DNA from: an uncultured virus (IMG/VR IMGVR_UViG_3300012344_000022)
Lineage: Duplodnaviria; Heunggongvirae; Uroviricota; Caudoviricetes
Direction: 5' to 3' (one strand)
DNA: 64,000 bases
Virus record (IMG/VR): IMGVR_UViG_3300012344_000022
Both the position numbers and the translations under genes were made by a program. The notes beneath the pieces were generated by a model, which saw only the letters and a list, made by a program, of their open reading frames with translations, was not told the origin of the DNA and did no database searches. Below are positions 2,299 to 54,676 of this stretch, one piece after another. Position 1 is the stretch's first letter; each line of letters starts with the position of its first letter.

Positions 2299-3255
2299 AT
2301 GAGTTTGATAAAAGGTATCAAAGTAGGTACATCAAATATTACTGCTTCATTTACAGACAATGACACAAAGGATGACAGTAAGATTATCGAAGTTGTTGCT
2401 GTAAATTTGAAATCTATTGCTTCTCCGGATAATACTGTATATACAGGTCTTGAACAGAAACCAGAACCCAATGTCATAGCGACGGTTGGAACAGAAGATA
2501 AGATACTTGAAAAGGATGTTGACTATACACTATCATATAAGAACAATATAAATGTAGGAACAGCTACTGTAATTGCAACAGGTATAGGTAATTTTACTGG
2601 AACAGTGAATGCTAACTGGACTATAAATGGTGCAGACATAACTATTGACATATCTGATCAATCTTATGTATATGACGGAACAGTTCAGGGATATGGTCTT
2701 ACTGTGAGTACAGTAAATAATCAAGCACCTACAGTAAAATATGGAATAAAGGAAGGAACATATGATATTGATGAAGTACCCATGATTTCACATGTCTCCG
2801 ATTCCAAAATGATATATTATCAGGTTTCTGCTCCCAATCATAATACAGTCAGGGGTTCATACAGACTTGAAATGACACCAAGAACCGCGACACTTGTCTG
2901 GGGAACTCTTTCATGGATATATGATGGGAAACCACATAAGACAACTTGTGTAGTGGGAAATCTTATAGGTAATGATGTCTGTGATGTCAATCTTGAAGGA
3001 AATGACATAATTGATATAGGTTCATCCATTGTCAGGGTGATATCATTGACAAACACAGACTATACATTACCTTTGAACGGACTTGAACAGACACTTGTCA
3101 TAAAGGGTGGTCTGTTCATAAAGGACAATGGAATATGGATACCTGTCAAGGATGTATATAGGAAGACTTCATCTGGATGGACAAGGATACCTTATGAACA
3201 ACTTCAAATTGAACTTGCGAAGAATTCCGGAAAGTTTGTAAGAAAAATGACATAA
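2299..3255 (+). CDS. Ig-like (MBG-type) repeat virion protein
   Basis: Contains 'DYTLSYKNNINVGTATVIATGIGNFTGTV' and a 'SYVYDG...TVKYG...IYYQVSAPNH' unit homologous to the upstream gene. Confidence 0.7.
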   Translation: MSLIKGIKVGTSNITASFTDNDTKDDSKIIEVVAVNLKSIASPDNTVYTGLEQKPEPNVIATVGTEDKILEKDVDYTLSYKNNINVGTATVIATGIGNFTGTVNANWTINGADITIDISDQSYVYDGTVQGYGLTVSTVNNQAPTVKYGIKEGTYDIDEVPMISHVSDSKMIYYQVSAPNHNTVRGSYRLEMTPRTATLVWGTLSWIYDGKPHKTTCVVGNLIGNDVCDVNLEGNDIIDIGSSIVRVISLTNTDYTLPLNGLEQTLVIKGGLFIKDNGIWIPVKDVYRKTSSGWTRIPYEQLQIELAKNSGKFVRKMT

Positions 3256-3262
3256 ATAAGAT

Positions 3263-3709
3263 ATGCGGGTTGAATTCATACATAGACTTACAAAACCTGA
3301 ACTTCCTGATTCTGGAAGTTTCTACTGGATATATGGAAATGGAAATCAAATTTGGTTTGCTCCGGATAGAAATCCAGACAATATGATTCTTCTCAATGAT
3401 ACTTTTGAAGGACTTGAAGAAAGACTTGAAGAGTTTGAAGCAAGAATAGAGAAGACTGAAGGTGATATAGAAGTCATAAAGGTTGAACTTGACGGACTTG
3501 AAGAAAACCTGAAAAATGAGTTGAGGGAATTCATAGATGATTATCTCAAGAAAAATTTGAAGACTGTCAATGGAGAAGAACTTTATGGACCCGGAAACAT
3601 AGAGATAAAGACTGAAGTAGTAATAGATGATGAAACAAAGAATGAGATAATAGATCAGGTCAAGAAGGAGGTTGAGACAAGACCTCTTGAATGGACTGTG
3701 ATACAATAA
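3263..3709 (+). CDS. Small coiled-coil structural/fibre-associated protein
   Basis: Heptad-like acidic stretch; fibre-type motif 'LKTVNGEELYGPGNIEI'; CATAAATA at 3251. Confidence 0.6.
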   Translation: MRVEFIHRLTKPELPDSGSFYWIYGNGNQIWFAPDRNPDNMILLNDTFEGLEERLEEFEARIEKTEGDIEVIKVELDGLEENLKNELREFIDDYLKKNLKTVNGEELYGPGNIEIKTEVVIDDETKNEIIDQVKKEVETRPLEWTVIQ

Positions 3710-3753
3710 AACATAAATATATAAAATATACAAAAAAAAAAACAAATAAATTT

Positions 3754-5829
3754 ATGGCAGAGATTTTTAAAAATGAAAAGCCAACCACAGTAGGAGATCC
3801 TGCTGCACTTGAAACACCTAATTATATTTCGCAAATCAATGCAGGTGGGACGGTGTATGATATTGCCACACATCATGGCATTACATTCAAAAACGGAATG
3901 ACTGATACCACAGGAACTGTGTGGAATGGTATAACTGATCTTGAAGTAATTATTCCTACAGTTACTGACCTTGTGAAGACACCTATCCAGTTTGCTGGTA
4001 CGGTAGGTGAGGATGGGATAATCACATATAGGGAAGGTGTAAATAAAACTCCTGAAGCAGGTTATCTTGTATTCATCACTGCGGACTGCACATTCAATGA
4101 AATAGCTTGTGAAGCAGGTGATATGGCAGTATATGATGGTACAAAATGGAATGTAGTAACTGGTGAGAATCAGGTATCCATTGTAGGTGTGGGTAGTGAT
4201 AATGCTGCTAATGTGGTGCTTACTGCAGCAGCAAAGGATGTTCTTACTGTTGAAGGAAAGACACTCAAACTTTCAGTTGATTATACAGGTGTTGAAGATG
4301 TATTGACCATTACAAAGAATGGTGATGTTGTAAAACTCAATGCTGCTGATGGTAAGACTGAAGTTGCAGCTAAATACATCAAACTTACAAAGGCTGCTGA
4401 TGGAACAAAGACAATCGGTAAGTCTGAAAGTGCTAATATACCTACTGCACTCAAAAGTGGTGAAGTTACCATCAATGAAAATGTTCTTGTAAAAGGTGAT
4501 TTTGATTTCAATGCTGGTAGTCTTCCTACACTCAAGAAAAATGATACTGCTATTGTTGCATCTGTAAACAGTACACTTGCTGTAGGTAAGCAAAATGGTG
4601 CAGATGGGGCTGAAGGTGCATATGTTACATCTATTGATGGTGCAATCAAATCTGCTTCTCTTGTTGCATCCGATACTGCTGCTGATGCTGCTCTTACATT
4701 TGTAAAGAGCATTACTGCAAAGGAAGGTGCTGAATTTGTAAATGGAATTCATGTTGCAGCAAGTACAGAGGAAACTGATGGTGAAGGTGATATTGTAATT
4801 CCTGGAAAGGCTTCTTTGAAGGCTGATAAGAAAACATTTGTAACAGGTCTTGGTAATGAAGGAGATGCAGGTGCATTGGTTTCAAAGATTATAGTGGGTG
4901 ATGTTACAGTGGGTGAAGGTACAGATATCGTGACGGGACTTGGTGCAGCAAAAGAGGATGCATCTGGTGAAGTAATCACAAATGTAACTGTGGGAACTGC
5001 TGTTCAGGATACTGCTGCTCAATGGTTCTATTCTGGTCTTGGTGAAGCAAAAACAACAGATTTTGATGTTGTTTCAAGTGTTTCAGTAGGTGCTGTTTCT
5101 CTTGTTGCTGATACTGCAAATTCTTTTGCAAATGATGTTCTTGCCACAGCTAAAGTTGATAATCATATTCTTTCATTCGGAACAGTAAAAGCATCATCTC
5201 CTGTAAAAGTCCAGCAGGCAACATCTACAATAAATGGTAAGTCATTCACAAAGAGTGGTGTGAAACTTTCAGGATTTGCAGTTGCTTCTGCTGATCTTGC
5301 AAAGGGAGGTATTTCACAGGCAAAATCTACTATCAAATATAAGGATGTTGTAACTGGTGATGCTGAACTTACATATGCTGATGATGTAAAATACTATTTT
5401 GATAAGGCAAAGGGCAGCACATTTGAGGCAACGACAGGTTATGCAAAATTTAATACTGTAAATGCCACAATCAGTAAGAATACTCCTGTTTTGACTGGTG
5501 GTGTGACTGCATCAATTCCTACAGATAAGGTTGTAGTTGATTTTGCATCTGCCGGAGAACTTCCTTCATTTAATGTAGGTGATGCATCTGGTGCTCTTAC
5601 AGGTTCAGTTGGTACAGCATTGACAACTGAAACAAAGACTTGGATTGGTCTTAAAAGTGCAGACATTACTGTTGCAGGAGCATATACACTTGGTGAGTCT
5701 ACTGAAAAAACAGAAGATGCAATTGAGGTTGCAAAGGCTGGTTCTTATGATCTTACCGGTGCTCACTGTGATATTGATGCGGAGACATTTGTTACAGGTG
5801 TTACTGTTGGAGTGAAATCGAAATTATAA
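3754..5829 (+). CDS. Ala/Gly/Thr-rich tail-fibre-like structural protein
   Basis: Likely start is ATG 3754 after CATAAATA at 3712. The 'IQFAGTV...AGDMAVYDGTKW' module is shared with the gene at 62921-64000. Confidence 0.6.
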   Translation: MAEIFKNEKPTTVGDPAALETPNYISQINAGGTVYDIATHHGITFKNGMTDTTGTVWNGITDLEVIIPTVTDLVKTPIQFAGTVGEDGIITYREGVNKTPEAGYLVFITADCTFNEIACEAGDMAVYDGTKWNVVTGENQVSIVGVGSDNAANVVLTAAAKDVLTVEGKTLKLSVDYTGVEDVLTITKNGDVVKLNAADGKTEVAAKYIKLTKAADGTKTIGKSESANIPTALKSGEVTINENVLVKGDFDFNAGSLPTLKKNDTAIVASVNSTLAVGKQNGADGAEGAYVTSIDGAIKSASLVASDTAADAALTFVKSITAKEGAEFVNGIHVAASTEETDGEGDIVIPGKASLKADKKTFVTGLGNEGDAGALVSKIIVGDVTVGEGTDIVTGLGAAKEDASGEVITNVTVGTAVQDTAAQWFYSGLGEAKTTDFDVVSSVSVGAVSLVADTANSFANDVLATAKVDNHILSFGTVKASSPVKVQQATSTINGKSFTKSGVKLSGFAVASADLAKGGISQAKSTIKYKDVVTGDAELTYADDVKYYFDKAKGSTFEATTGYAKFNTVNATISKNTPVLTGGVTASIPTDKVVVDFASAGELPSFNVGDASGALTGSVGTALTTETKTWIGLKSADITVAGAYTLGESTEKTEDAIEVAKAGSYDLTGAHCDIDAETFVTGVTVGVKSKL

Positions 5830-5850
5830 TTGATTTTTTCAAATACTTGT

Positions 5851-5885
5851 GAAAAGGAGTTATATCAATAACTCCTTTTCTTTTT
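5851..5885 (+). terminator. Intrinsic terminator hairpin
   Basis: gaaaaggagttat-atca-ataactccttttc followed by a T tract. Confidence 0.8.
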
Positions 5886-5902
5886 ATTTCCATAAATAAG
5901 TT

Positions 5903-6895
5903 ATGGCAGAGAACACTGAAAATAAAGATTCCATAGGGTTTTATAAGGTCTTGAATCCTGATAAACTGAATGATACAAAAACAGAGTATCCTAATTCCTT
6001 TATTCATTTTCATAATGAAGGAAAGGAAGACAACCTGTATATAGGTGATTGCAGGATAACGGACAATTTCAATATAAGAAATGTTCCGGATAAGGTGAAT
6101 ACCATGCAAGTGGGAGGACTTGACCCTACCACGATAGGTGCATTGAAAGACAAATCCTTGAGTGAGATTGTCATGCAGATGATTTGCCCGAGAACACCAC
6201 CTGAACCAATATCAGAACCAAGTATGACAATATCATATTCCGGAAACAGACTTGTCAAGGTAGGTTCAAACTTACCTGCAAAAGAAGACATAATCATTAC
6301 TTGTGATAAAGGCAAATGGTCTGATGGAACAGACTATGCCGGAGAACCATCAAATACTGATATTTCAATGTCTTCTGGCAAATGGGGAGAAACAAGTGAT
6401 GAAGGAAATTATGTAATTTCAGGTTCGACTATTTTCGGTGCAGGACCAAAACCCAAGGACAGTTATGGTGAAAAATATGATGATAACTACACAGGTGGAA
6501 CAGTTATTTCAAATGAAATAAAGATAACATCTGTTTATCCCATTTATGCAACAACTTATTTTGGCACTGATGATAAAGGTGATATAAGTAAACTCATTGA
6601 ACAACCATTACAAGATTATGTAAATAATGAAGATGTATCATTTGAAATAACTGTTCCACCAGAAGAAGATGGAAATCTCAACAAGTTCAAGATATATCTT
6701 CCTTTTGAAAAAAAACCCACTGTGAAACAATATAATCCTGTGAGTGGGAAATATGATATAGAGATTGAAATGATATATGATAAGAAGATAAAAATAACTG
6801 ATTATCCAGATTATTTATATCATTGTTATATAAGGACAAAAGATGAATATGATACAAAGGGTCCTACACAATATGAAATAAATTTGACAAGATAA
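5903..6895 (+). CDS. Hypothetical structural protein
   Basis: 330-aa ORF; CATAAATA at 5891; lies within the structural cluster. Confidence 0.6.
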   Translation: MAENTENKDSIGFYKVLNPDKLNDTKTEYPNSFIHFHNEGKEDNLYIGDCRITDNFNIRNVPDKVNTMQVGGLDPTTIGALKDKSLSEIVMQMICPRTPPEPISEPSMTISYSGNRLVKVGSNLPAKEDIIITCDKGKWSDGTDYAGEPSNTDISMSSGKWGETSDEGNYVISGSTIFGAGPKPKDSYGEKYDDNYTGGTVISNEIKITSVYPIYATTYFGTDDKGDISKLIEQPLQDYVNNEDVSFEITVPPEEDGNLNKFKIYLPFEKKPTVKQYNPVSGKYDIEIEMIYDKKIKITDYPDYLYHCYIRTKDEYDTKGPTQYEINLTR

Positions 6896-25439: not shown

Positions 25440-25494
25440 TGAAAATTTTATATAGAAAAGAATGTACTTGAAACAATAAATAAAATGAATTCCA

Positions 25495-26883
25495 TCAACA
25501 AGATGAAGTCATTTGTCTCACAAGAGACTTGGTTGATTTCAAGCTGAAAAACTTTGAATTCAAAGAATTCAAAGAAACTCTATACATCATTTTAGAGTTT
25601 TTGAAGAAATCATATAGATTCTTGAAATCCTTGAATTCTCCGGTCACACCAAATTCTTCCAATGACTTGGTGCATCTTTCATAGAAATCATTGATTTCAG
25701 GCTGTATTATATTCTTTCTTTGTGGTTTTGTCTTTATAACATATTGATTATAAAACTCATAACATCTTCTACTTATCTCTATTGAAGCAAGAACCATATC
25801 AGGGAGATTCAAGTCTCTGAACAAAAAGTTTCCTATGAAAGAACTGTAATTTGGTTTAACCTCAAACAGTTTCAAACCATAGATGTTGCATCTCTTCTTC
25901 AGGTTGTTCACCATCTTGGTTCTGTTCCACAGGTTGTTACACAATGAGTTGTATTTTGAACCTTTCTTCTTGTCAGAAGACTTGATTGAAAGGTCTTCCA
26001 CCGCAAACAAGGAACATCTGTAATACAATGCCTTGTCTATCAGGTTCTTGGATATTTCATAGACTTCATGTTCCCTTTTGTTGTTGAGATGGGTTCTCTT
26101 TGGATGGTCTGAACTCAATCCATCAGGGTTCTTCTTTGACTTCTTCAAAGCAAAGTGCTTGTCATTCAATGACTTGATGGAGATGACACCAGAAGAAATC
26201 ACAGAAAATTCACTGGATGATTTCCAGTCAACAACTGACCACCCCACATAGTTGGGGTTCAAATCTATTGAGAACACCCTGTTCTCTATTTTCCTTGATT
26301 CTATCTCTTTAAGTATGATTTCATCAAATGAAATATAGACATAATTCAAATCAACCTTGAAGGTCATACCTATAGTCTTATGTAATTGACAATCAAATAG
26401 TTTATTGATTATTTTCTTATAACCTTTATGGAAATTACAAGAAACATCAAGTTTTATATGTGTCTTTCTGTTGGGTTTGAAGATGATGGTGTTTATGTCA
26501 TCAAAGGCAAACAACCTGTTTGTGTGTTCCTTGTCGCCTATAGAATAGAGCAGTCTCATCCTTTTCTTCAGGAATTCTTCCTTTGAAATCTTTCCCTGAC
26601 ACCTTTTGATAAAGTTGTTCTTTCCGCCGAAAATGATTCTCTTGTCTTCATCCGTAGATGCCTTTATCTGCAATGACTCCTTTATTGAACTGTGTATGAG
26701 ATAATAGTTCATCAATGGTATGTTATTGACTGTCAGACTCTTCAACTCCTTCTCTGTGATATCAGGGTTGTCCATAAGCCTGTTGTACATAAAATGCAGA
26801 CAGGAATTGTACTGTCTGATATACTCAAACAACAAGTCCTTGTCTTCATCACTTACTCTGTATTTCAGCTTTATGGTTGTCAT
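25495..26883 (-). CDS. tnpB: TnpB/Cas12f-like RuvC nuclease (IS200/IS605-type accessory protein) with no adjacent transposase
   Basis: RuvC-I 'VFSIDLNPNYVGW'; RuvC-II 'FAVEDLSI'; 'VKPNYSSFIGN'; RuvC-III 'PDMVLASIEISRR'; N-terminal 'YNSCLHFMYNRL' helix. Confidence 0.8.
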   Translation of the reverse strand: MTTIKLKYRVSDEDKDLLFEYIRQYNSCLHFMYNRLMDNPDITEKELKSLTVNNIPLMNYYLIHSSIKESLQIKASTDEDKRIIFGGKNNFIKRCQGKISKEEFLKKRMRLLYSIGDKEHTNRLFAFDDINTIIFKPNRKTHIKLDVSCNFHKGYKKIINKLFDCQLHKTIGMTFKVDLNYVYISFDEIILKEIESRKIENRVFSIDLNPNYVGWSVVDWKSSSEFSVISSGVISIKSLNDKHFALKKSKKNPDGLSSDHPKRTHLNNKREHEVYEISKNLIDKALYYRCSLFAVEDLSIKSSDKKKGSKYNSLCNNLWNRTKMVNNLKKRCNIYGLKLFEVKPNYSSFIGNFLFRDLNLPDMVLASIEISRRCYEFYNQYVIKTKPQRKNIIQPEINDFYERCTKSLEEFGVTGEFKDFKNLYDFFKNSKMMYRVSLNSLNSKFFSLKSTKSLVRQMTSSC

Positions 26884-27054
26884 ATAAATATTTATGAAAA
26901 AATAGTTTTGTTATTTTTATGGTAAATATGGATGAATTTTATTATTTTTATCAATTTGGATACAACATTGCTTGTTGACAGAAAGAAAAGAAATATTGAA
27001 AAATTGTGGTGAACATATAATAGTTTGTTATTTTTATTGAAGAAAAAATGTTTC

Positions 27055-27270
27055 ATGAAAAGGTATAGAATAAGAAAGTTGACACCAAGAGAGTGTGGAA
27101 GACTTATGGGAGTTGATGACATTGACATCAACTATATGCTTTCCTGTGGATTGAAAGACAGTGAGTTGTATAAAATGTATGGGAATTCTATTGTAACATC
27201 ATGTATGATTCATATGTTTGATAATCTGTTTTTGAACAGACCTGTGAAAAAAAATGTAGAGTTGTGGTAG
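27055..27270 (+). CDS. Free-standing motif IX-X fragment of a C5 cytosine DNA methyltransferase
   Basis: 'YRIRKLTPRECGRLMG' (motif IX) and 'LYKMYGNSIV' (motif X). It has its own upstream element at 27024. Confidence 0.85.
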   Translation: MKRYRIRKLTPRECGRLMGVDDIDINYMLSCGLKDSELYKMYGNSIVTSCMIHMFDNLFLNRPVKKNVELW

Positions 27271-27282
27271 AAAAATAATTTT

Positions 27283-28446
27283 ATGATGAAAAAATATACA
27301 GAAGAAGAACCTTTGAAGGTTTTTACAGCATTTTCGGGTTATGATTCCCAGTGTCTTGCTTTGAAGAGACTTGGGATTCCTTTTGATCTTGTGGGATGGA
27401 GTGAGATAGACAAGGCTGCAATAAAGGCACATGATGCTTTGTTTCCTGAATATAAGGACAGGAATTATGGGGACATTTCAAAGATTGACTGGTCTCAGGT
27501 TCCTGACTTTGAGTTGTTTACTTATTCGAGTCCATGTTTTGTTGCTGGAACTCAAATTTTGACAAAAACAGGATATAAGAATATTGAAGATATACAAAAA
27601 GGTGATGAAGTATTGACACATACCGGAGAGTATCATAGAGTAGTTGATACTATGAATCATCTTTATGCAGGAGTAATGTATCATATACATACAGATTCCG
27701 GATTTGTGGATTGTACAAGAAATCATCCATTTTATGTATATACATCAGGTGAGTATGAATGGGTGAGAGCTGAAGATTTGAATGGGGATACAATGTATAC
27801 CTGCGGTGTAGGACTTTATGGAGATGGAAACTGGACACATGATGAAATCTGTGAAAAGAAGTCATATGTATCTGATGCTCCTATTGTTGTATATAATTTT
27901 GAAGTGGAGAAAGATCACAGCTATATAGCTAATAATATTGTAGTAAAAAACTGTACTGATTTCAGCAATGCCGGTCTGCAAGCAGGTGGTGAAGAGGGTT
28001 CAGGCACAAGGTCTTCACTTCTCTGGGAATGCAGAAAGACCATTCTTGCAAAGAAACCGAAATATCTTATGTTCGAGAATGTGAAGGCACTGGTGAGTGA
28101 AAAATTCTTCTATCTTTTTAACAAATGGTGTAAGGAACTTGAAAGTTATGGATATGTCAATTATTATCAGGTCTTGAATGCAAAGGATTATGGTGTTCCC
28201 CAGAACAGAGAAAGAATCTTTATGATTTCCATATTGAAGACTGATGATGAACCAAATCCTTATTATGAATTCCCAAAACCAATGAAACTGGAAAAGACTG
28301 TCGAGGATGTGCTTGAAGATGATGTTCCAGAGAAGTATTATATGTCTCAGGAAGTGACCGACAAGTATATTCAGAGGATGAAGGAAGAATATCCCGATGG
28401 AATAGGTGAGGATATTGAGGATGATATGGAAGATGGTTTATGGTGA
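27283..28446 (+). CDS. C5 cytosine DNA methyltransferase catalytic fragment (motifs I-VIII) interrupted by an intein
   Basis: FSGYDS (I), GDISKID (III), SSP-[intein]-CTDFSNAG (IV), MFENV (VI), PQNRERIF (VIII). It lacks a TRD and motifs IX-X. Confidence 0.9.
   Translation: MMKKYTEEEPLKVFTAFSGYDSQCLALKRLGIPFDLVGWSEIDKAAIKAHDALFPEYKDRNYGDISKIDWSQVPDFELFTYSSPCFVAGTQILTKTGYKNIEDIQKGDEVLTHTGEYHRVVDTMNHLYAGVMYHIHTDSGFVDCTRNHPFYVYTSGEYEWVRAEDLNGDTMYTCGVGLYGDGNWTHDEICEKKSYVSDAPIVVYNFEVEKDHSYIANNIVVKNCTDFSNAGLQAGGEEGSGTRSSLLWECRKTILAKKPKYLMFENVKALVSEKFFYLFNKWCKELESYGYVNYYQVLNAKDYGVPQNRERIFMISILKTDDEPNPYYEFPKPMKLEKTVEDVLEDDVPEKYYMSQEVTDKYIQRMKEEYPDGIGEDIEDDMEDGLW
27535..27951 (+). mobile_element. Mini-intein (139 aa) inserted in the catalytic Pro-Cys motif
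   Basis: Starts CFVAGTQI; block B 'CTRNHPF'; block F/G 'VYNFEVEKDHSYIANNIVVKN' followed by Cys. No homing endonuclease. Confidence 0.9.
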
Positions 28447-28622
28447 TGAAAAAAGTGAAGAAGACTGTCATCAATACTTGTGAGGACGGAACTGCACATA
28501 CTATTGTGGCTTGGTATGCAAAGGGGGGAAGAAGTAATTTTGCTGGATGGAATGGTTCAAATAGGTTTGTGATGACTGCGGTTCTTGAAGAATACGATGA
28601 TGAAGAAAATGAAGAAAAATAG
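28446..28622 (+). CDS. Free-standing TRD-like peptide 1 of the C5 methyltransferase
   Basis: 'INTCEDGTAHTIVAWYAKGG' (T-I/L motif of C5 TRDs); ends 'AVLEEYDD'; ATG overlaps the MTase TGA. Confidence 0.6.
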   Translation: MKKVKKTVINTCEDGTAHTIVAWYAKGGRSNFAGWNGSNRFVMTAVLEEYDDEENEEK

Positions 28623-28803
28623 GGAAAGGTTCATAGTTGACCATCAGGGTTATGGCAAAGCAGATCCAAGACCGGGATCACATATGGTTATGTCTGCAAA
28701 CAAGAATGTCTGCACCACATTGACCACGTTCTGTTCATTGAACAAGGCTGTGGTGGAGATTTATGAAGATGATGAAAGTTCAGACAGTGAAAGTTTATGG
28801 TAA
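28609..28803 (+). CDS. Free-standing TRD-like peptide 2 of the C5 methyltransferase
   Basis: 'VMSANKNVCTTLTT' TL motif; ends 'AVVEIYEDD...LW'; overlaps the upstream ORF. Confidence 0.55.
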   Translation: MKKNRERFIVDHQGYGKADPRPGSHMVMSANKNVCTTLTTFCSLNKAVVEIYEDDESSDSESLW

Positions 28804-35536: not shown

Positions 35537-37704
35537 ATGGGATTTGTTTCACCTTATTATTTTTATATATTTGAAATTATATATAAGTCAAAGAGATATT
35601 TCAAACTTGGGTATTCGATTCATCCCATTCAAAGGGTTGATGAATGGAGAAAGGATTGTCCTGATGGAGAAGTGAGAATTATATATACATTTGCTGGTGT
35701 TTCAAGAATAGGTTCAAATTATATACTCATAGGAGAAAGAGATAAACACCCACAGAATTCAGATGCGGTTGTAAGAAAATGGTTTCATCAAAATAGGTAT
35801 ACATCCATACAAGATTATAAAATATCTTTGGATAATGGTTTTTTCACAAAGGAAGGTCTTGACTTTTATGATAAGGACATCACTGATGATAAAATCATAG
35901 GATATGTCAAGGAATTTATCAAGGAAACAACAGAATGGTGTTTTGAGTATTCATATAAACTTTCAAAGAAGGAGTATGATAAATTTATTTCCAAGTTCAA
36001 TGATGAATGTGGATATGTTGATTATAATAATAAACAGTTTTCTGACTACATTCTTGACAAATATAAATTAGATTTACATGATTTTATTGATGTAATGCAG
36101 ATGATGTCATTATCAGGAGAAAGGACTGATTTGATTTCTGTTTGTGATTATGGAAAACATGATTTTATTGATAAAAATGATAAGAAGTCATTAATGAATT
36201 CATATAACCAGATAATTTTGAATTCAAATTATATTGCAATAAAGGAAAGAATAGAAAACTGGTTAAATGAAACAAACAATAGAAAAGAAATCATGGAAAA
36301 AATCATACCATCTCAAAATATAAAACACGGTATGGTTACTGATGATGTATATCAAAGACTTATTCATAATGTTGATAGGAGTGATAATGAATATGTAATC
36401 ACAAATTGTTTTGAATCCATTGAAAATATAAGAAAGGATTTTCCTGATAAACAGATAGTTTGTATTGCATTTACTGTTGTTGAAGCACTTGGATTTGAAA
36501 TGATGGGTGTTGATAATGAGTTTGTTATATTTAATAGAGAACTATGCAAGGAGATAAATAGAAAAAATCTTCTTGATTATTTTGATTATATAAACACAAG
36601 AATCAAAGAAATGGGTTTCTGGAATAAAAAATGTGCAGTTGTTGGTAATCCACCATATAATGTGGGGAACAGTCAAATATATCCTTTATTTTATAAGTGG
36701 TGTATAAATCATTTTGATGATGTGTGTCTTATATTTCCGTCTGGATGGCAAAAACCAAAAGACAAGAAAGGATTGAGTGTCATGAACACCCCAGAAATAA
36801 AATATGATAAACAAATTGTATACATTGACAATATAGATAATGCATTTGAGGGTGTGGATGGTGCAAAATCAACAAATATAATATATTGGAAAAAAGGATA
36901 TGATAATAAACTTGACGGAAGTCAATTGTTGTATAATAATGGAAATAATCCACAAGTGGTTAAATTTGATACATCAAAAGATGATGTGAAAAGAGTTGAT
37001 GAAGTAGGGGAAGTCAAGAAATATTTAGGTAATTTTGTGGGTATGGATACTATAAATACAGGAGGTATGCCATATAATATCAATACATTTTTTCTCAAAG
37101 AACCAGAAAGGGGAGGATTTCCAAATACATTATATGATAAGAGAATACATGATGATGATATAAAAGTTGTAGGATCAATAGACAGAACAAGGATAGAAAA
37201 ATATGTTGATATAAATTATCCTTTCCCTGAACCTGTAAAGGATTGTCATAGGAATTATTATAAAGTATTCATACCGAATGTTTGGGGTGGTCAAAGTGGA
37301 CAGTTTCTTGGAGGAACATATAGTGATATTTATATTGCATTTCCAACAGATATATGCACTGCCACTTATATAGAGTCTGGATATTGCAAAGATTTTGAAA
37401 CTGTGAAAAGACATGCAAAATATTGTATGTCAAAGTTTGCAAGATTTCTGTTGCTTGACAATAAATTTAGTATTGCAAATTCAAAGACTGCTTGGAAATC
37501 TGTTCCTACTCAAAATTATTCAGAAGATTTCTGGAAATCAGATGACATANNNNNNNNNNNNTTCCGGAACATTTGAGAGAATTCATAAAAAAGAATATAC
37601 AACCGAGAACTGTGAAGAATATCATAAACTACAATGATGAACAAATTGTTGATTGTAAATCTTCATCAGTTTCTGTAGAAGATGAATGGAGTGAGTTCTT
37701 ATAA
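35537..37704 (+). CDS. N6-adenine DNA methyltransferase (Eco57I-like) fused to an N-terminal T5orf172/GIY-YIG-like domain; spans the assembly gap
   Basis: 'YFYIF...FKLGYS..P..RV.EW' and 'VVGNPPY'. After the N-run an open frame reads PEHLREFIKKNIQ...EDEWSEFL* to 37704. Confidence 0.65.
37550..37561. other. Assembly gap (12 N)
   Basis: Run of n characters. Confidence 1.
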
Positions 37705-37712
37705 AATAAGAA

Positions 37713-38684
37713 ATGACTATGAACAATATAGTTGATTATGAATCATTTTGTTCCCATATGAAGGAACAGATCGAGAAGGAAAGGATAGAACAGAGCAAAT
37801 ACAAATATAGTGATATATTTGATGATTTTCTGAAAATAAATGGTGTTGATGATGATACTGTGACGGAGGATATGATGGACTGGTATGCATATCATGTCTG
37901 TGATAAGAAAGGATATTTCAATCCTTATTCATTTTATTCTGATTGCTGCAATTATAATGATTATGTCAATGAAATGTTGGAAAAAACAACATTAGATGTT
38001 TTGAAAAAACAGTTGAACATAAATCTTGGTGCAGGTAAGAAATACCATGTCTCAAATTATACAGACAATGATGATAAGATGAATATTCTGCTTGTTTCAA
38101 AGGAAATATATGACAGAGATAAGATATTCAACACATGCAACAGTATGATGTGGTCATTTTCCGCAGTTGAATATGATGAAGGAAAATGGAAGAACCCTAT
38201 GATAGTGGATAATCCTTATGTCTTCAATGACTATGGGTTTCCTTTGATAAGAATTCAGGTTGAACCAGTGAAGACAAAGAACATAACTGATTTTGTCAAC
38301 AATAACTGCAAGGGAAAGATATATCATCTGTGTGAAAAGAAAAATATTCAATATATATTGAAATCTGGATTGAGAATAAAAGGTGAAAACAATAATTACA
38401 GATATATACAGAACAAGGTATATTTCTTTTGTGGTGAGACAAAGGAAGATATTGAGAATAATTTTCAAATAGTCTTGAAGTCAAAGGATTTGTTGAAATA
38501 TGGGATTCCCTGGATAGTTGATAATTATTCACTCCTGGAAATTGATGTAAATGGTTATAATATAGATTTCTATCAGGATGGTTATTATATGGATGATGTG
38601 AGATACATAGGTTATACATATAACTATTTTCCACCAAAGAGACTGAAGGTTGTTGATATCAATGATTTTATAAATGATTTATGA
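37713..38684 (+). CDS. ADP-ribosyltransferase-like protein, tandem copy 1
   Basis: 'IYHLC....IL.SGLR...NKVYFF...LLEID...YTYNYFPP'; N-terminus NIVDYESF..HMKE. Confidence 0.55.
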   Translation: MTMNNIVDYESFCSHMKEQIEKERIEQSKYKYSDIFDDFLKINGVDDDTVTEDMMDWYAYHVCDKKGYFNPYSFYSDCCNYNDYVNEMLEKTTLDVLKKQLNINLGAGKKYHVSNYTDNDDKMNILLVSKEIYDRDKIFNTCNSMMWSFSAVEYDEGKWKNPMIVDNPYVFNDYGFPLIRIQVEPVKTKNITDFVNNNCKGKIYHLCEKKNIQYILKSGLRIKGENNNYRYIQNKVYFFCGETKEDIENNFQIVLKSKDLLKYGIPWIVDNYSLLEIDVNGYNIDFYQDGYYMDDVRYIGYTYNYFPPKRLKVVDINDFINDL

Positions 38685-39652
38685 AGAATATAATTGATTA
38701 TAAATCTTTTTGTTCTCATATAAAGGAACAAATTGAGAAGGAAAAGATTGAACAGAACAAATACAAATATCCCACAGATTTTGAAAGAACATTTGACAAT
38801 TTTCTTGAAGAGAATAATGTAGATAATGATACTGTCACAGAGGATATGATGGACTGGTATGCATATCATATTTGTGATAAGAAAGGTTATTTCAATCCTG
38901 ATATATTTCATATCCATTATCCCAATTTCAATGTTCATATCAATGAAATGTTGAAAAATACATCATTGTCTGTCTTGATCAAACAATTGAATATCTGTCT
39001 TGGTGCAGGTAAGGAATATTATGTCTCAAATTATACAGATAATGATGATATGGCAAATGTACTGCTTGTTTCAAAGGAAATATATGACAGAGATTATATC
39101 TTTGAAATATGTGGTAGAATGATGTGGTCATTTTCTGCTGTGGAATCTGAAGAAGATGTATGGGAGAATCCTATGATGGTTGATGAACCATATGTATATG
39201 ATAAATATGGTTTTCCTTTGATAAGAATTCAGGTTGAACCCATAAAGACAAAGAATATAACTGATTTTGTCAATGACAATTGCAAGGGGAAGATATACCA
39301 TTTATGCAATATAAAAAGAATTGATGATATCTTGAAATCTGGTTTGAGACCAAAGGGTGAAAACAATAATTACAGATATATACAGAACAAGGTATATTTC
39401 TTTTGTGGTGAGACAAAGGAAGATTTGATGAAAAATCTGTCCATCATTATAAAATCAAAAAAAGAAAAAATAAATGACAAATCATCAATAATTGAAAGAT
39501 ATGGTTTATTGGAAATTGATGTAAATGGTTATAATATAGATTTCTATCAGGATGGTTATTATATGGATGATGTGAGATACATAGGTTATACATATAACTA
39601 TTTTCCACCGAAGAGACTGAAGGTTGTTGATATCAATGATTTTATAAAATAA
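38681..39652 (+). CDS. ADP-ribosyltransferase-like protein, tandem copy 2
   Basis: Paralog of 37713-38684; both are 323 aa in the ORF track. Confidence 0.55.
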   Translation: MKNIIDYKSFCSHIKEQIEKEKIEQNKYKYPTDFERTFDNFLEENNVDNDTVTEDMMDWYAYHICDKKGYFNPDIFHIHYPNFNVHINEMLKNTSLSVLIKQLNICLGAGKEYYVSNYTDNDDMANVLLVSKEIYDRDYIFEICGRMMWSFSAVESEEDVWENPMMVDEPYVYDKYGFPLIRIQVEPIKTKNITDFVNDNCKGKIYHLCNIKRIDDILKSGLRPKGENNNYRYIQNKVYFFCGETKEDLMKNLSIIIKSKKEKINDKSSIIERYGLLEIDVNGYNIDFYQDGYYMDDVRYIGYTYNYFPPKRLKVVDINDFIK

Positions 39653-52227: not shown

Positions 52228-52270
52228 ATAATTATTTATGGGATTTTATGTTTGTTATTTTTATAGTGTT

Positions 52271-52996
52271 ATGAAAAATGAAATAAAATATAATAAAGAT
52301 AATCCATTGAAGGTATTCACCACATTTTCTGGTTATGACTCCCAGTGTCTTGCCTTGAAAAAATCAGGAATACCTTTTGATCTTGTGGGATGGAGTGAAA
52401 TTGAGAAGAGAGCAATTGATGCCCATAATTTGATATTTCCGGAATATAAGGACAGAAACTATGGAGACATCTGCAAGATTGACTGGAAAAGTGTTCCTGA
52501 TTTTGATTTCTTTACTTATTCAAGTCCTTGTCAGTCATTTTCAATATGTGGCAAAATGTTGGGTGGTGAAGAAGGGTCTGGAACAAAATCATCACTTCTC
52601 TGGGAATGTAAAAAGGCAATTGAAATCAAGAGACCCAGATATCTTATGCTTGAAAATGTAAAAAATCTTGTATCTGACAAATTTATACATACTTTTAATC
52701 TCTGGCTTGACTATCTTAAATCACAAGGATATACAAACTGGTGGAAGGTCTTGAAGGGATCAGATTATGGTATCCCACAAGAAAGAGAAAGAGTGTTCTG
52801 TGTTTCAATACTTAATCCAGATGGTAATTTCATATTCCCAAAAGGACACAAATTGTATAAATCTGTTGAAGATTTTATGCAGACAAAGGAACAGATGGGT
52901 GATACTTATGAAAATATTGTAGATCCCAAAGAAAATTATGAAAATTATATAAAAGAAAATCCACAATTATATAAGTTTGCAGTAAAACAAAAATAA
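52271..52996 (+). CDS. Split C5 cytosine methyltransferase, alpha part (motifs I-VIII)
   Basis: FSGYDS, SSPCQSFS, MLENV, PQERERVF; intein-less paralog of 27283-28446. Confidence 0.9.
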   Translation: MKNEIKYNKDNPLKVFTTFSGYDSQCLALKKSGIPFDLVGWSEIEKRAIDAHNLIFPEYKDRNYGDICKIDWKSVPDFDFFTYSSPCQSFSICGKMLGGEEGSGTKSSLLWECKKAIEIKRPRYLMLENVKNLVSDKFIHTFNLWLDYLKSQGYTNWWKVLKGSDYGIPQERERVFCVSILNPDGNFIFPKGHKLYKSVEDFMQTKEQMGDTYENIVDPKENYENYIKENPQLYKFAVKQK

Positions 52997-52998
52997 GT

Positions 52999-53466
52999 AT
53001 GGGATCAAAAGTATCAAAAATAAAAACAGGAAAACAGATTGCAAATGTAAATACTGTTGTAAAAGATTTTGATGAAGATATGTGGGGGACAGAATCAAAC
53101 TTATTTGGAGAAACACCTGAAGATGCAATACCAAATAAATGTCCATATATAATTCAGTTGGGAAATATCAGACAGGACAGGAAAAAATTTTCAAACCCAC
53201 AGGATGGACGAGTATATTCAATGAAAGGATGTTGTCCTACACTTCATCTGGGTGAACCACCAAGATTTATAATTGAAGATGATGATGGATATAAAATAAG
53301 AAGTTTGAGTGGGTTTGAGTCAATGAGACTTATGGGTGTAGAAGATGAAGATATACAAAAACTTGTTGATGGTGGATTAAGCAACAAACAATTATGCATG
53401 CTTGCTGGTAATTCCATAATAGTAAACATTATGAGTGAGATGTTCAATGAATTGATAAAACATTAA
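52999..53466 (+). CDS. Split C5 cytosine methyltransferase, beta part (TRD + motifs IX-X)
   Basis: TRD 'PQDGRVYSMKGCCPTL'; IX 'IRSLSGFESMRLMG'; X 'LAGNSIIV'. Confidence 0.85.
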   Translation: MGSKVSKIKTGKQIANVNTVVKDFDEDMWGTESNLFGETPEDAIPNKCPYIIQLGNIRQDRKKFSNPQDGRVYSMKGCCPTLHLGEPPRFIIEDDDGYKIRSLSGFESMRLMGVEDEDIQKLVDGGLSNKQLCMLAGNSIIVNIMSEMFNELIKH

Positions 53467-54236: not shown

Positions 54237-54449
54237 TTATATCTTACTCAAAAGAGTATTGATGTCACCAAGAAGGTCATACACACATTTTGCCGAAGGA
54301 TATTGCAAGTCGGTAGATGATTCACTTATTGATGAAACAAGATTTTTTTCCTGAAACTTGTCTGATGTCTTTCCATCAAGTGTAGTAGTCTCAATAGGAT
54401 GAATAACATCACCTATTTTTATACTTTTGATTGTCTCTATATCTGTCAT
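54237..54449 (-). CDS. Small fibre-motif protein, paralog 2
   Basis: 'FQEKNLVSSI.E.STD.QYPSAKCVYD'. Confidence 0.65.
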   Translation of the reverse strand: MTDIETIKSIKIGDVIHPIETTTLDGKTSDKFQEKNLVSSISESSTDLQYPSAKCVYDLLGDINTLLSKI

Positions 54450-54460
54450 AATTTATATAA

Positions 54461-54676
54461 TTATTTTTTATTCAAAAGTGATTTTATGTCTCCTACAATA
54501 TCATACACGCATTTTGCGGAAGGGTATTGGTCATCCGTTGAATTTTCATCTACTGATGAAACAAGATTCTTCTGTTGAAAATAACTTGCAGGATGACCAT
54601 TGAGATATTGTGCATCCAGAGGATGTTCAACACCGTCAGTAGTTCTGATATGAGTTATAGTCTCTATATCTGCCAT
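54461..54676 (-). CDS. Small fibre-motif protein, paralog 1
   Basis: 'FQQKNLVSSV.E.STD.QYPSAKCVYD'; CATAAATA on the minus strand at 54698-54705. Confidence 0.65.
   Translation of the reverse strand: MADIETITHIRTTDGVEHPLDAQYLNGHPASYFQQKNLVSSVDENSTDDQYPSAKCVYDIVGDIKSLLNKK

Follow-up and report, generated by a model that had tools for sequence, protein, structure and literature searches.

The DNA stretch analysed here, hereafter the window, is a 64,000-nucleotide sequence of an uncultured virus of the class Caudoviricetes (IMG/VR record IMGVR_UViG_3300012344_000022). The sequence covers a part of a jumbo phage of the gut type, and its replication genes (topoisomerase II subunits, clamp loader and helicase) are T4-like. 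Between positions 27055 and 28803 the window encodes a cytosine-C5 (C5) DNA methyltransferase divided among four genes, namely a small subunit that contains only the conserved motifs IX and X (IX-X), a catalytic core with motifs I-VIII, and two free modules, T1 and T2, that are considered here as target-recognition domains (TRDs), the latter with more caution. The features of the locus are the following (aa, amino acids).

27055..27270, plus strand: IX-X gene, a TRD-less small subunit of 71 aa with a basic N-terminal strand and a C-terminal LW tail (PF00145 positions 272-319, E 7.5e-7).
27283..28446, plus strand: catalytic core of 387 aa with motifs I-VIII, a linker and a C-terminal LW tail (PF00145 E 7e-47; TIGR00675 above cut-off).
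27535..27951, plus strand: mini-intein of 139 aa (core residues 85-223) at the Pro-Cys of motif IV (Hint/intein Pfam matches; TIGR01443 above cut-off).
28446..28622, plus strand: T1, free module of 58 aa of the target-recognition type (module family found in the C5 variable region; docks in the L003 structure model).
28609..28803, plus strand: T2, second free module of 64 aa, probably for target recognition, with a putative binding role (TL-motif tail matches; dN/dS 0.06).

The original prediction, made from the sequence alone, had described these four open reading frames (ORFs) with their motifs and acidic ends, and all of them were recovered here; the order that it gave, a 71-aa chain with motifs IX-X only, then a core with motifs I-VIII, then two peptides of ~60 aa, was confirmed by Pfam and by the ORF listing. 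The core has all the C5 features sought (the catalytic Pro-Cys, ENV and the motif VIII arginines), and PF00145 covers the N-terminal two thirds in it, the profile match stopping near position 219. Motifs IX-X are located in the separate 71-aa ORF, which begins at motif IX, and a Pfam scan of T1 and T2 gave zero matches. Overlapping stop and start codons had been reported; the overlap holds for core/T1 and T1/T2, whereas the IX-X stop codon (TAG) precedes the core start by 12 nucleotides (nt) in the same frame. T2 starts in the +1 frame within the acidic end of T1, and alternative start codons are available for both modules (ATG at 28440 for T1; ATGs at 28597 and 28600 for T2). The genetic code of the window is standard; an alternative code with TAG as a sense codon was considered and ruled out, since 6 of the 44 long ORFs terminate at TAG.

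The mini-intein within the core had been overlooked by the first reading. It has an N-terminal Cys, block B and a C-terminal Asn followed by Cys, without an endonuclease, and it ends in K-N rather than H-N, the penultimate residue being Lys. The catalytic Cys of the methyltransferase is the C+1 residue of the intein, so that Pro84 and Cys224 would adjoin after the predicted splicing. The same site is occupied by inteins of ~300-360 aa in contigs L004, L005, L112 and L119 and is empty in most relatives; the C-extein of the core is 80-90% identical to the cores of six jumbo contigs, intein-bearing or intein-free.

The division of the enzyme is conserved in related phages. Assembly error can be dismissed as the cause of the breaks, since all four ORFs and the T1/T2 junction recur in L112, a diverged sister that carries a longer intein and is 92-97% identical to the window in DNA in three aligned blocks. 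A TRD-less IX-X gene of 71-74 aa, the core and a free module gene are retained in related contigs, which reach 411 kb in length. The comparison of synteny in these relatives, which had been suggested as a check, revealed conserved separate genes, often with 0.4-1.4 kb of unrelated genes between the parts. T1 is away from the core in 12 of the 18 loci scored by motif pattern, and the TRD-less IX-X gene is non-adjacent to the core in 4 of the 10 loci scored, both counts including the window as well as near-relatives that were not dereplicated. A motif VIII or X signature was found in none of the 61 retrieved proteins bearing the T1 core motif, and T1 is present as a single copy in each of the two near-complete records searched. 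The T1/T2 junction itself was compared in 29 related loci: 25 have the two modules fused, two are split as in the window and two are cut by contig ends. Met is retained at the junction in 49 of 51 fused proteins. In L004 a separate T1 lies upstream of the IX-X gene, and L005 has a T2-like gene only. A duplicated stretch in L004 (980-1460), comprising the end of a small-chain gene and a promoter-like motif, flanks a T1/T2-like cassette that has been inserted before the IX-X gene, and the T2-like ORF of the cassette is truncated by it; such a duplication is a possible route of module movement.

The small genes show low ratios of non-synonymous to synonymous substitution. The corrected ratio (dN/dS) and its uncorrected counterpart (pN/pS) were 0.054 and 0.10 for T1 (25 sequences, 41 codons), 0.057 and 0.14 for T2 (16 sequences, 44 codons), and 0.12 and 0.26 for IX-X (14 sequences, 56 codons); these estimates, which cover T1, T2 and IX-X, rest on sequences that match a motif pattern and have the commonest length, a choice biased towards conserved copies, and their synonymous sites are near saturation. 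The pN/pS values between the window and its relatives are as low as those within the clade. Judging from these substitution patterns, the separate arrangement is maintained by purifying selection in related phages. Since the parts are separate, rearranged and under purifying selection, both decay and recoding into one chain fit poorly, and the earlier argument that the breaks do not reflect simple decay is sustained by the selection on the small pieces and by the retention of the breaks in L112.

The peptides had been predicted to align with C5 TRDs, and this proved correct for T1. Iterated local profiles linked T1 to ~40 small segments that follow the core gene in the smaller phages L007-L020, and the T1-family profile collected 609 clusters at 50% identity. 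Among the best 150 of these clusters, 107 have members of at most 100 aa and 28 of at least 150 aa; 24 of the long members match PF00145 (23 above the cut-off), the remaining four being three proteins without a match, one of which has motif IX, and one unrelated repeat protein. In three chains (P0157, P0176 and P0247) a T1-type module is located between motifs VIII and IX. The sole match of the T1 profile in E. coli Dcm is the TL segment of the variable region, which was equalled by 1-2 of 2000 shuffled sequences and which says nothing on the target sequence of T1. With a generic profile of in-cis modules T1 ranks 4th, at an independent E-value (iE) of 2.6. T1 alone is predicted to fold at a predicted local distance difference test score (pLDDT) of 83; no match to this fold was obtained in the PDB at Z of at least 2 or among viral structures at E below 0.001, a search of PDB sequences with the T1 profile returned nothing relevant, and an atlas search with T1 gave no usable match. 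No acceptable fold was obtained for the fused T1-T2 (pLDDT 41), and the L003 fusion used as a single query for longer proteins yielded 0 matches among 107 candidates. On the strength of the profile links, we conclude that T1 is a member of a module family of the C5 methyltransferase variable region and is of the TRD type.

For T2 the matches to in-cis modules did not reach significance. With a profile made from T2 only, the TL-motif tails of array modules rank above decoys (iE 0.002-0.07 among 4640 segments). The best T2 site on M.SPRI is the TL motif of its first module, a score reached by 111 of 2000 shuffles, and in the atlas the nearest Pfam-bearing cluster is PF00145 (0.91, a lead). Matches of another profile, A2, to many PF00145 chains were dropped as support for T2, as this profile held four array modules of another type; they are not counted here because T2-type sequences alone lose those matches. 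T2 is thus a probable TRD-like module on weaker evidence than T1.

The fit of the parts was examined by a three-chain structure prediction, for which we used the intein-free core, IX-X and T1 of the relative L003 (identity with the window 86% over the C-extein of the core, 66% for IX-X and 80% for T1), T1 being the partner chain. The model obtained a score of 0.87 compared with 0.07 for the best of three controls, and it passed a mark that was attained by only 2 of 215 mismatched pairs, as against 116 of 157 solved complexes. The model runs share at least 95% of the contacts, with a partner pLDDT of at least 82. In the model, T1 residues 13-16 contact core residues 167-170 (motif VIII), and T1 residues 42-45, its last strand, pair with IX-X residues 5-7. 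In single-chain C5 enzymes the small domain is composed of the TRD and motif IX, as described in PMC3404938 and PMC5944983. The model thus supports binding of T1 at the canonical TRD position of single-chain enzymes, and the multimer check proposed for the core, IX-X and T1 was passed with canonical contacts by the L003 set.

Taken together, the conserved separate genes, purifying selection, T1 homology and the passing three-chain model support the multi-subunit reading of the original prediction, and we consider it likely that the locus encodes a phage orphan C5 methyltransferase assembled from separately translated parts, in which the module sets the target; its activity and multispecificity we infer from this arrangement. 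In the proposed mechanism, the intein would splice out of the core to give motifs I-VIII, and the spliced core would bind the IX-X chain, restoring helix X of the S-adenosylmethionine site. The IX-X chain would present a free N-terminal strand, to which a free module (T1 or T2) would add its last strand, with its TL-type loop lying against motif VIII, so that the small DNA-reading domain is rebuilt and the loaded module sets the target. Within the clade, one core would serve a pool of partners comprising the TRD-less IX-X chain with free modules plus one or two IX-X chains with their own TRD, and these alternative small chains would add further targets. The likely purpose would be protection against several host restriction systems.

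The existence of alternative small chains is apparent in the relatives, where two or three IX-X genes per core occur in the cluster (177 aa and 113 aa, each with its own TRD, and the TRD-less one); L112 has an extra IX-X chain of 130 aa. A single-chain enzyme is also present near the cluster in relatives, as is another split pair at a distance of ~40 kb. The 177-aa chain (L003 219-752 and orthologues) starts with a copy of the linker that follows motif VIII in the core, and for this reason it overlaps the C-terminus of the core. The window has a second split pair of its own.

52238..52996, plus strand: second C5 core with motifs I-VIII, likely start at 52271 (PF00145 2-208; TTTGTTATWTTTAT upstream at 52251).
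52999..53466, plus strand: classical TRD plus IX-X chain, the partner of the 52238 core in an M.AquI-like two-chain enzyme (PF00145 270-324, E 0.018).

The TRD of the latter chain matches array modules (E 9e-7), and counterparts are present in the genomes G001 and G004. This gene had been cited as a paralog with an uncut TRD-IX junction; the junction is present, but the gene is itself only the C-terminal half of an enzyme with its core in the separate ORF at 52238-52996.

In 80 genome loci, mostly labelled Bacteroidales, we found 35 with the core and IX-X in one frame, 18 with a core and a small chain, 19 split with free TRD-like segments, which may include frameshifted pieces, and 8 incomplete. 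Permuted chains, with IX-X before I-VIII, account for 13 of the 80 loci and repeat the gene order of the window in fused form; 10 of them have at most 27 residues before motif IX, and 12 have free TRD-like segments alongside. Permuted chains with little or no room for a TRD and with free microgenes were recorded in L195, L196, L202, L205, L208, L212, L214, L215, L219, L220, L221 and L225. A further 77 loci (L034-L110, about 2750-4190) on gut-type viral contigs of 2-99 kb encode IX-X chains of 88-479 aa, the N-terminal part of which is very variable in length; the core was not found there by motif pattern alone.

In smaller phages (L011-L020, about 3450-6380) the core is followed by arrays of many TRD-like microgenes of 45-70 aa, which overlap at an ATG inside the terminal Tyr-Glu, and most of these modules contain a homopolymer of 7-17 G or C residues. 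The reading frame of one homologous array module is kept in L020, where the run is G11, and lost in L016, where it is G7, as would result from phase variation. In the jumbo loci, the modules have no G/C runs of at least 7 bases; the window has only a G6 in T1, which is interrupted in 6 of the 8 relatives read. The original idea of exchangeable TRD peptides fits this wider family more than the jumbo clade, because the clade modules are ~80% identical and mostly fused together.

The core and the IX-X chains share a C-terminal tail. L[WF] ends were found in 40 of 41 IX-X chains and 22 of 23 cores, but in few free modules (2 of 26) and in a single one of 99 other ORFs; the sole IX-X chain without this end is a gene cut by an insertion sequence (IS). 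Over 400 kb of G001, 11 of the 426 genes end in L[WF], where 1.7 would be expected; four of them are C5 pieces, two encode other DNA methyltransferases and one the DNA polymerase, and the remaining four are unassigned. The DNA polymerases of both G001 and G004 end in GLW, and small chains in smaller phages often terminate in QLxLF. C-terminal QL(S/D)LF and LDFL motifs mediate binding to the bacterial and T4 clamps, and in the case of Dnmt1 the clamp used is PCNA (PMC9690074). A clamp loader is encoded in the window. As their L[WF] ends match that of the phage DNA polymerase, the core and IX-X chains are probably tethered to the sliding clamp, and riding on the clamp would concentrate the parts on new DNA. 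The four unassigned L[WF] proteins (L145 17917-18378; L147 2469-3047 and 6123-6884; L151 5555-5854) are candidate replication-fork partners.

A more general formulation extends to Bacteroidales-type phages, in which a clamp-tethered core and a TRD-less IX-X adaptor would load free TRD microproteins of 45-65 aa in trans, specificity being a plug-in part, and these might be individually switchable in the homopolymer-bearing arrays of the smaller relatives. The evidence leaves this broader proposal evenly poised between right and wrong.

Several results weigh against the assembly proposed for the window. T1 and T2 are fused in the 25 of 29 related loci mentioned above. The T1 profile had no match in M.SPRI, a characterised multispecific enzyme, and T2 gave no significant match to in-cis modules (best iE 0.06) and fell outside the top 15 of the generic in-cis module profile. 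Fragments of a divided gene can succeed in the complex test through likeness to solved single-chain enzymes, and the model job was unlike the calibration in having three chains and custom alignments and in using the proteins of the relative L003, not those of the window. A clamp of the gp45 type (PF09116) was searched for in G001 and G004 and was not found. Finally, according to PMC5944983, an engineered split into X-I-VIII and TRD-IX was inactive in M.MpeI and M.SssI, and hence not every cut complements.

Among the alternative explanations, we regard as unlikely that the core is active only with TRD-bearing IX-X chains, in the manner of M.AquI, while the TRD-less chain and the modules act as regulators, decoys or competitive inhibitors, or the core with the TRD-less chain forms a low-specificity enzyme. 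The 113-aa and 177-aa chains in the same cluster of relatives, the precedent of two-chain C5 enzymes (PMC3404938) and the scarcity of L[WF] tails among free modules agree with it; however, the predicted docking places T1 where a TRD canonically sits, loci that extend far enough upstream repeatedly contain the TRD-less chain, and permuted TRD-less chains with free modules alongside exist.

It is also improbable that the architecture works in the clade and the window holds a crippled or reduced copy, with an unspliced intein or with the T1/T2 break and the insertion as a recent loss. The K-N end of the intein, the IS-like element that cut the neighbouring 113-aa gene and the fusion of the modules in most relatives could be read in this way. 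The intein nevertheless has its N- and C-terminal blocks, L112 shows the same split within an intact cluster, L004 also has a separate T1, the fused proteins mostly keep Met at the junction, and the window-versus-relative pN/pS is as low as that of the clade.

Recoding that joins the ORFs, with amber read-through from IX-X into the core to yield a permuted enzyme and frameshifts into T1 and T2, is very improbable. The in-frame TAG 12 nt before the core, the overlaps at core/T1 and T1/T2 and the natural permuted fusions (13 relatives; also PMC5944983) would allow it, but TAG is a normal stop in the window, relatives have TAA or TGA at this point, often with other genes between the parts, and the cores and IX-X chains each have a conserved terminal motif. 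Decay of a former single-chain multispecific methyltransferase, for which single-chain relatives with such modules (P0157, P0247) might be cited, is extremely improbable and largely refuted by the selection data, given that all the small pieces are under strong purifying selection, that their starts and ends are conserved and that the breaks fall at module borders across dozens of contigs.

The region upstream of the locus contains three additional features.

25495..26883, minus strand: TnpB-like ORF of 462 aa of an IS200/IS605-like element within the methyltransferase cluster (TIGR01766 E 2e-6, TIGR01765 E 2e-7, both under cut-off).
26968..27012, plus strand: orphan 3' end, cut off by the insertion, of the 113-aa gene for an alternative small subunit with TRD and IX-X (alignment to the corresponding end of the uncut gene in L112).
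27024..27037, plus strand: promoter-like motif TTTGTTATWTTTAT upstream of the IX-X gene (phage-wide; function suggested by position only).

The IS-like element is missing from L112, where the interrupted gene stays whole, and the 5' part of the cut 113-aa gene lies to the left of the element in L111, outside the window. L111 equals the window over 7544 bases from inside the element rightwards; 58 positions differ in the left 600 bases of the element (window 25459-27012 versus L111 1-2100), and the left flank of L111, which differs from that of the window, holds the remainder of the methyltransferase cluster. These differences suggest that the window was recombined, or else wrongly joined, across two element copies. 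The original prediction had assigned to the locus a dedicated upstream element, which is contradicted by the distribution of TTTGTTATWTTTAT: 11 matches with at most one mismatch are present in the window versus 0.5 expected (21836, 24181, 26907, 26938, 27024, 31020, 36521, 41547, 43283, 52251 and 55767). The motif occurs in intergenic gaps before the helicase, topoisomerase, thymidylate synthase and Clp ATPase genes and both C5 loci; the copies at 26907 and 26938 adjoin the IS-like element, and most others precede unrelated genes. Elsewhere in the window, two adjacent similar 70-aa ORFs (54237-54449 and 54461-54676, both on the minus strand) are tandem paralogues between the dUTPase and clamp loader genes, and two tandem paralogous 323-aa ORFs with similar starts and ends occupy 37713-39652, with 12 N bases near 37560.

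The locus adds a stable, switch-free version of the arrangement under measured selection, a pool of small chains and a polymerase-like tail. If the proposed assembly is true, a TRD peptide acting in trans would bring an HsdS-like logic to C5 enzymes, it would account for a large unannotated family of phage microgenes (the 609 clusters are of the T1 type alone), TRD-to-sequence codes would become testable by swapping one 50-aa gene, and a natural scaffold for programmable cytosine methylation would be available. With such an arrangement, a single enzyme might protect the phage DNA at a number of different sequences. The jumbo locus is a handy test case, with two modules, no long homopolymer switches and intein-free orthologues. 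A full-text literature search, with most subscription papers outside its coverage, returned no C5 enzyme with a free TRD gene in titles or abstract openings.

Multispecific C5 methyltransferases are encoded by the Bacillus phages phi3T, rho11s and H2. Like M.SPRI (K02124.1), which also belongs to these Bacillus phage enzymes, the enzyme proposed here would be a phage orphan C5 enzyme with several short TRD modules per catalytic core, and its modules end in a hydrophobic strand with Glu, as seen in the M.SPRI sequence. An in-cis module profile built from T1-family chains matches the first SPR module (iE 1e-5). In contrast, M.SPRI has all its modules in one 439-aa chain between motifs VIII and IX, the window has them in separate genes, and a sequence match to SPR is absent for T1 and not significant for T2.

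In the literature consulted, the natural split C5 methyltransferases described so far keep the TRD on one of two chains. M.AquI consists of a core that ends after motif VIII and a separate C-terminal chain (PMC3404938); the same type is represented by the 52238-53466 pair of the window and, among relatives, by the chains of 113 and 177 aa. Its small chain contains the distal variable region with IX-X, whereas the 71-aa chain of the window has no variable region, which is supplied by a third and a fourth gene, and several small chains share one core. M.EcoHK31I, a natural two-polypeptide C5 enzyme with a small motif-bearing chain (same source), differs from the window in that its large chain retains the TRD and motif X, so that motif IX alone is detached. 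In the circularly permuted M.BssHII, M.Alw26I, M2.Eco31I, M.Esp3I and M2.BsaI (PMC5944983), IX-X precedes I-VIII as in the window and in the 13 fused relatives; these enzymes are single chains that include the TRD, whereas in the window IX-X and the core are separated by TAG and the TRD lies outside both. A tested feature separates the locus from each of the single-chain multispecific, M.AquI, M.EcoHK31I and permuted groups, and it belongs to none of them. In principle it resembles the Type I HsdM/HsdS systems, where specificity comes from a separate, exchangeable subunit (PMC12707154). The latter have another fold and chemistry, being amino-methyltransferases with bipartite sites and a large S subunit, whereas the specificity part in the window would be a 45-65-aa piece of the C5 small domain.

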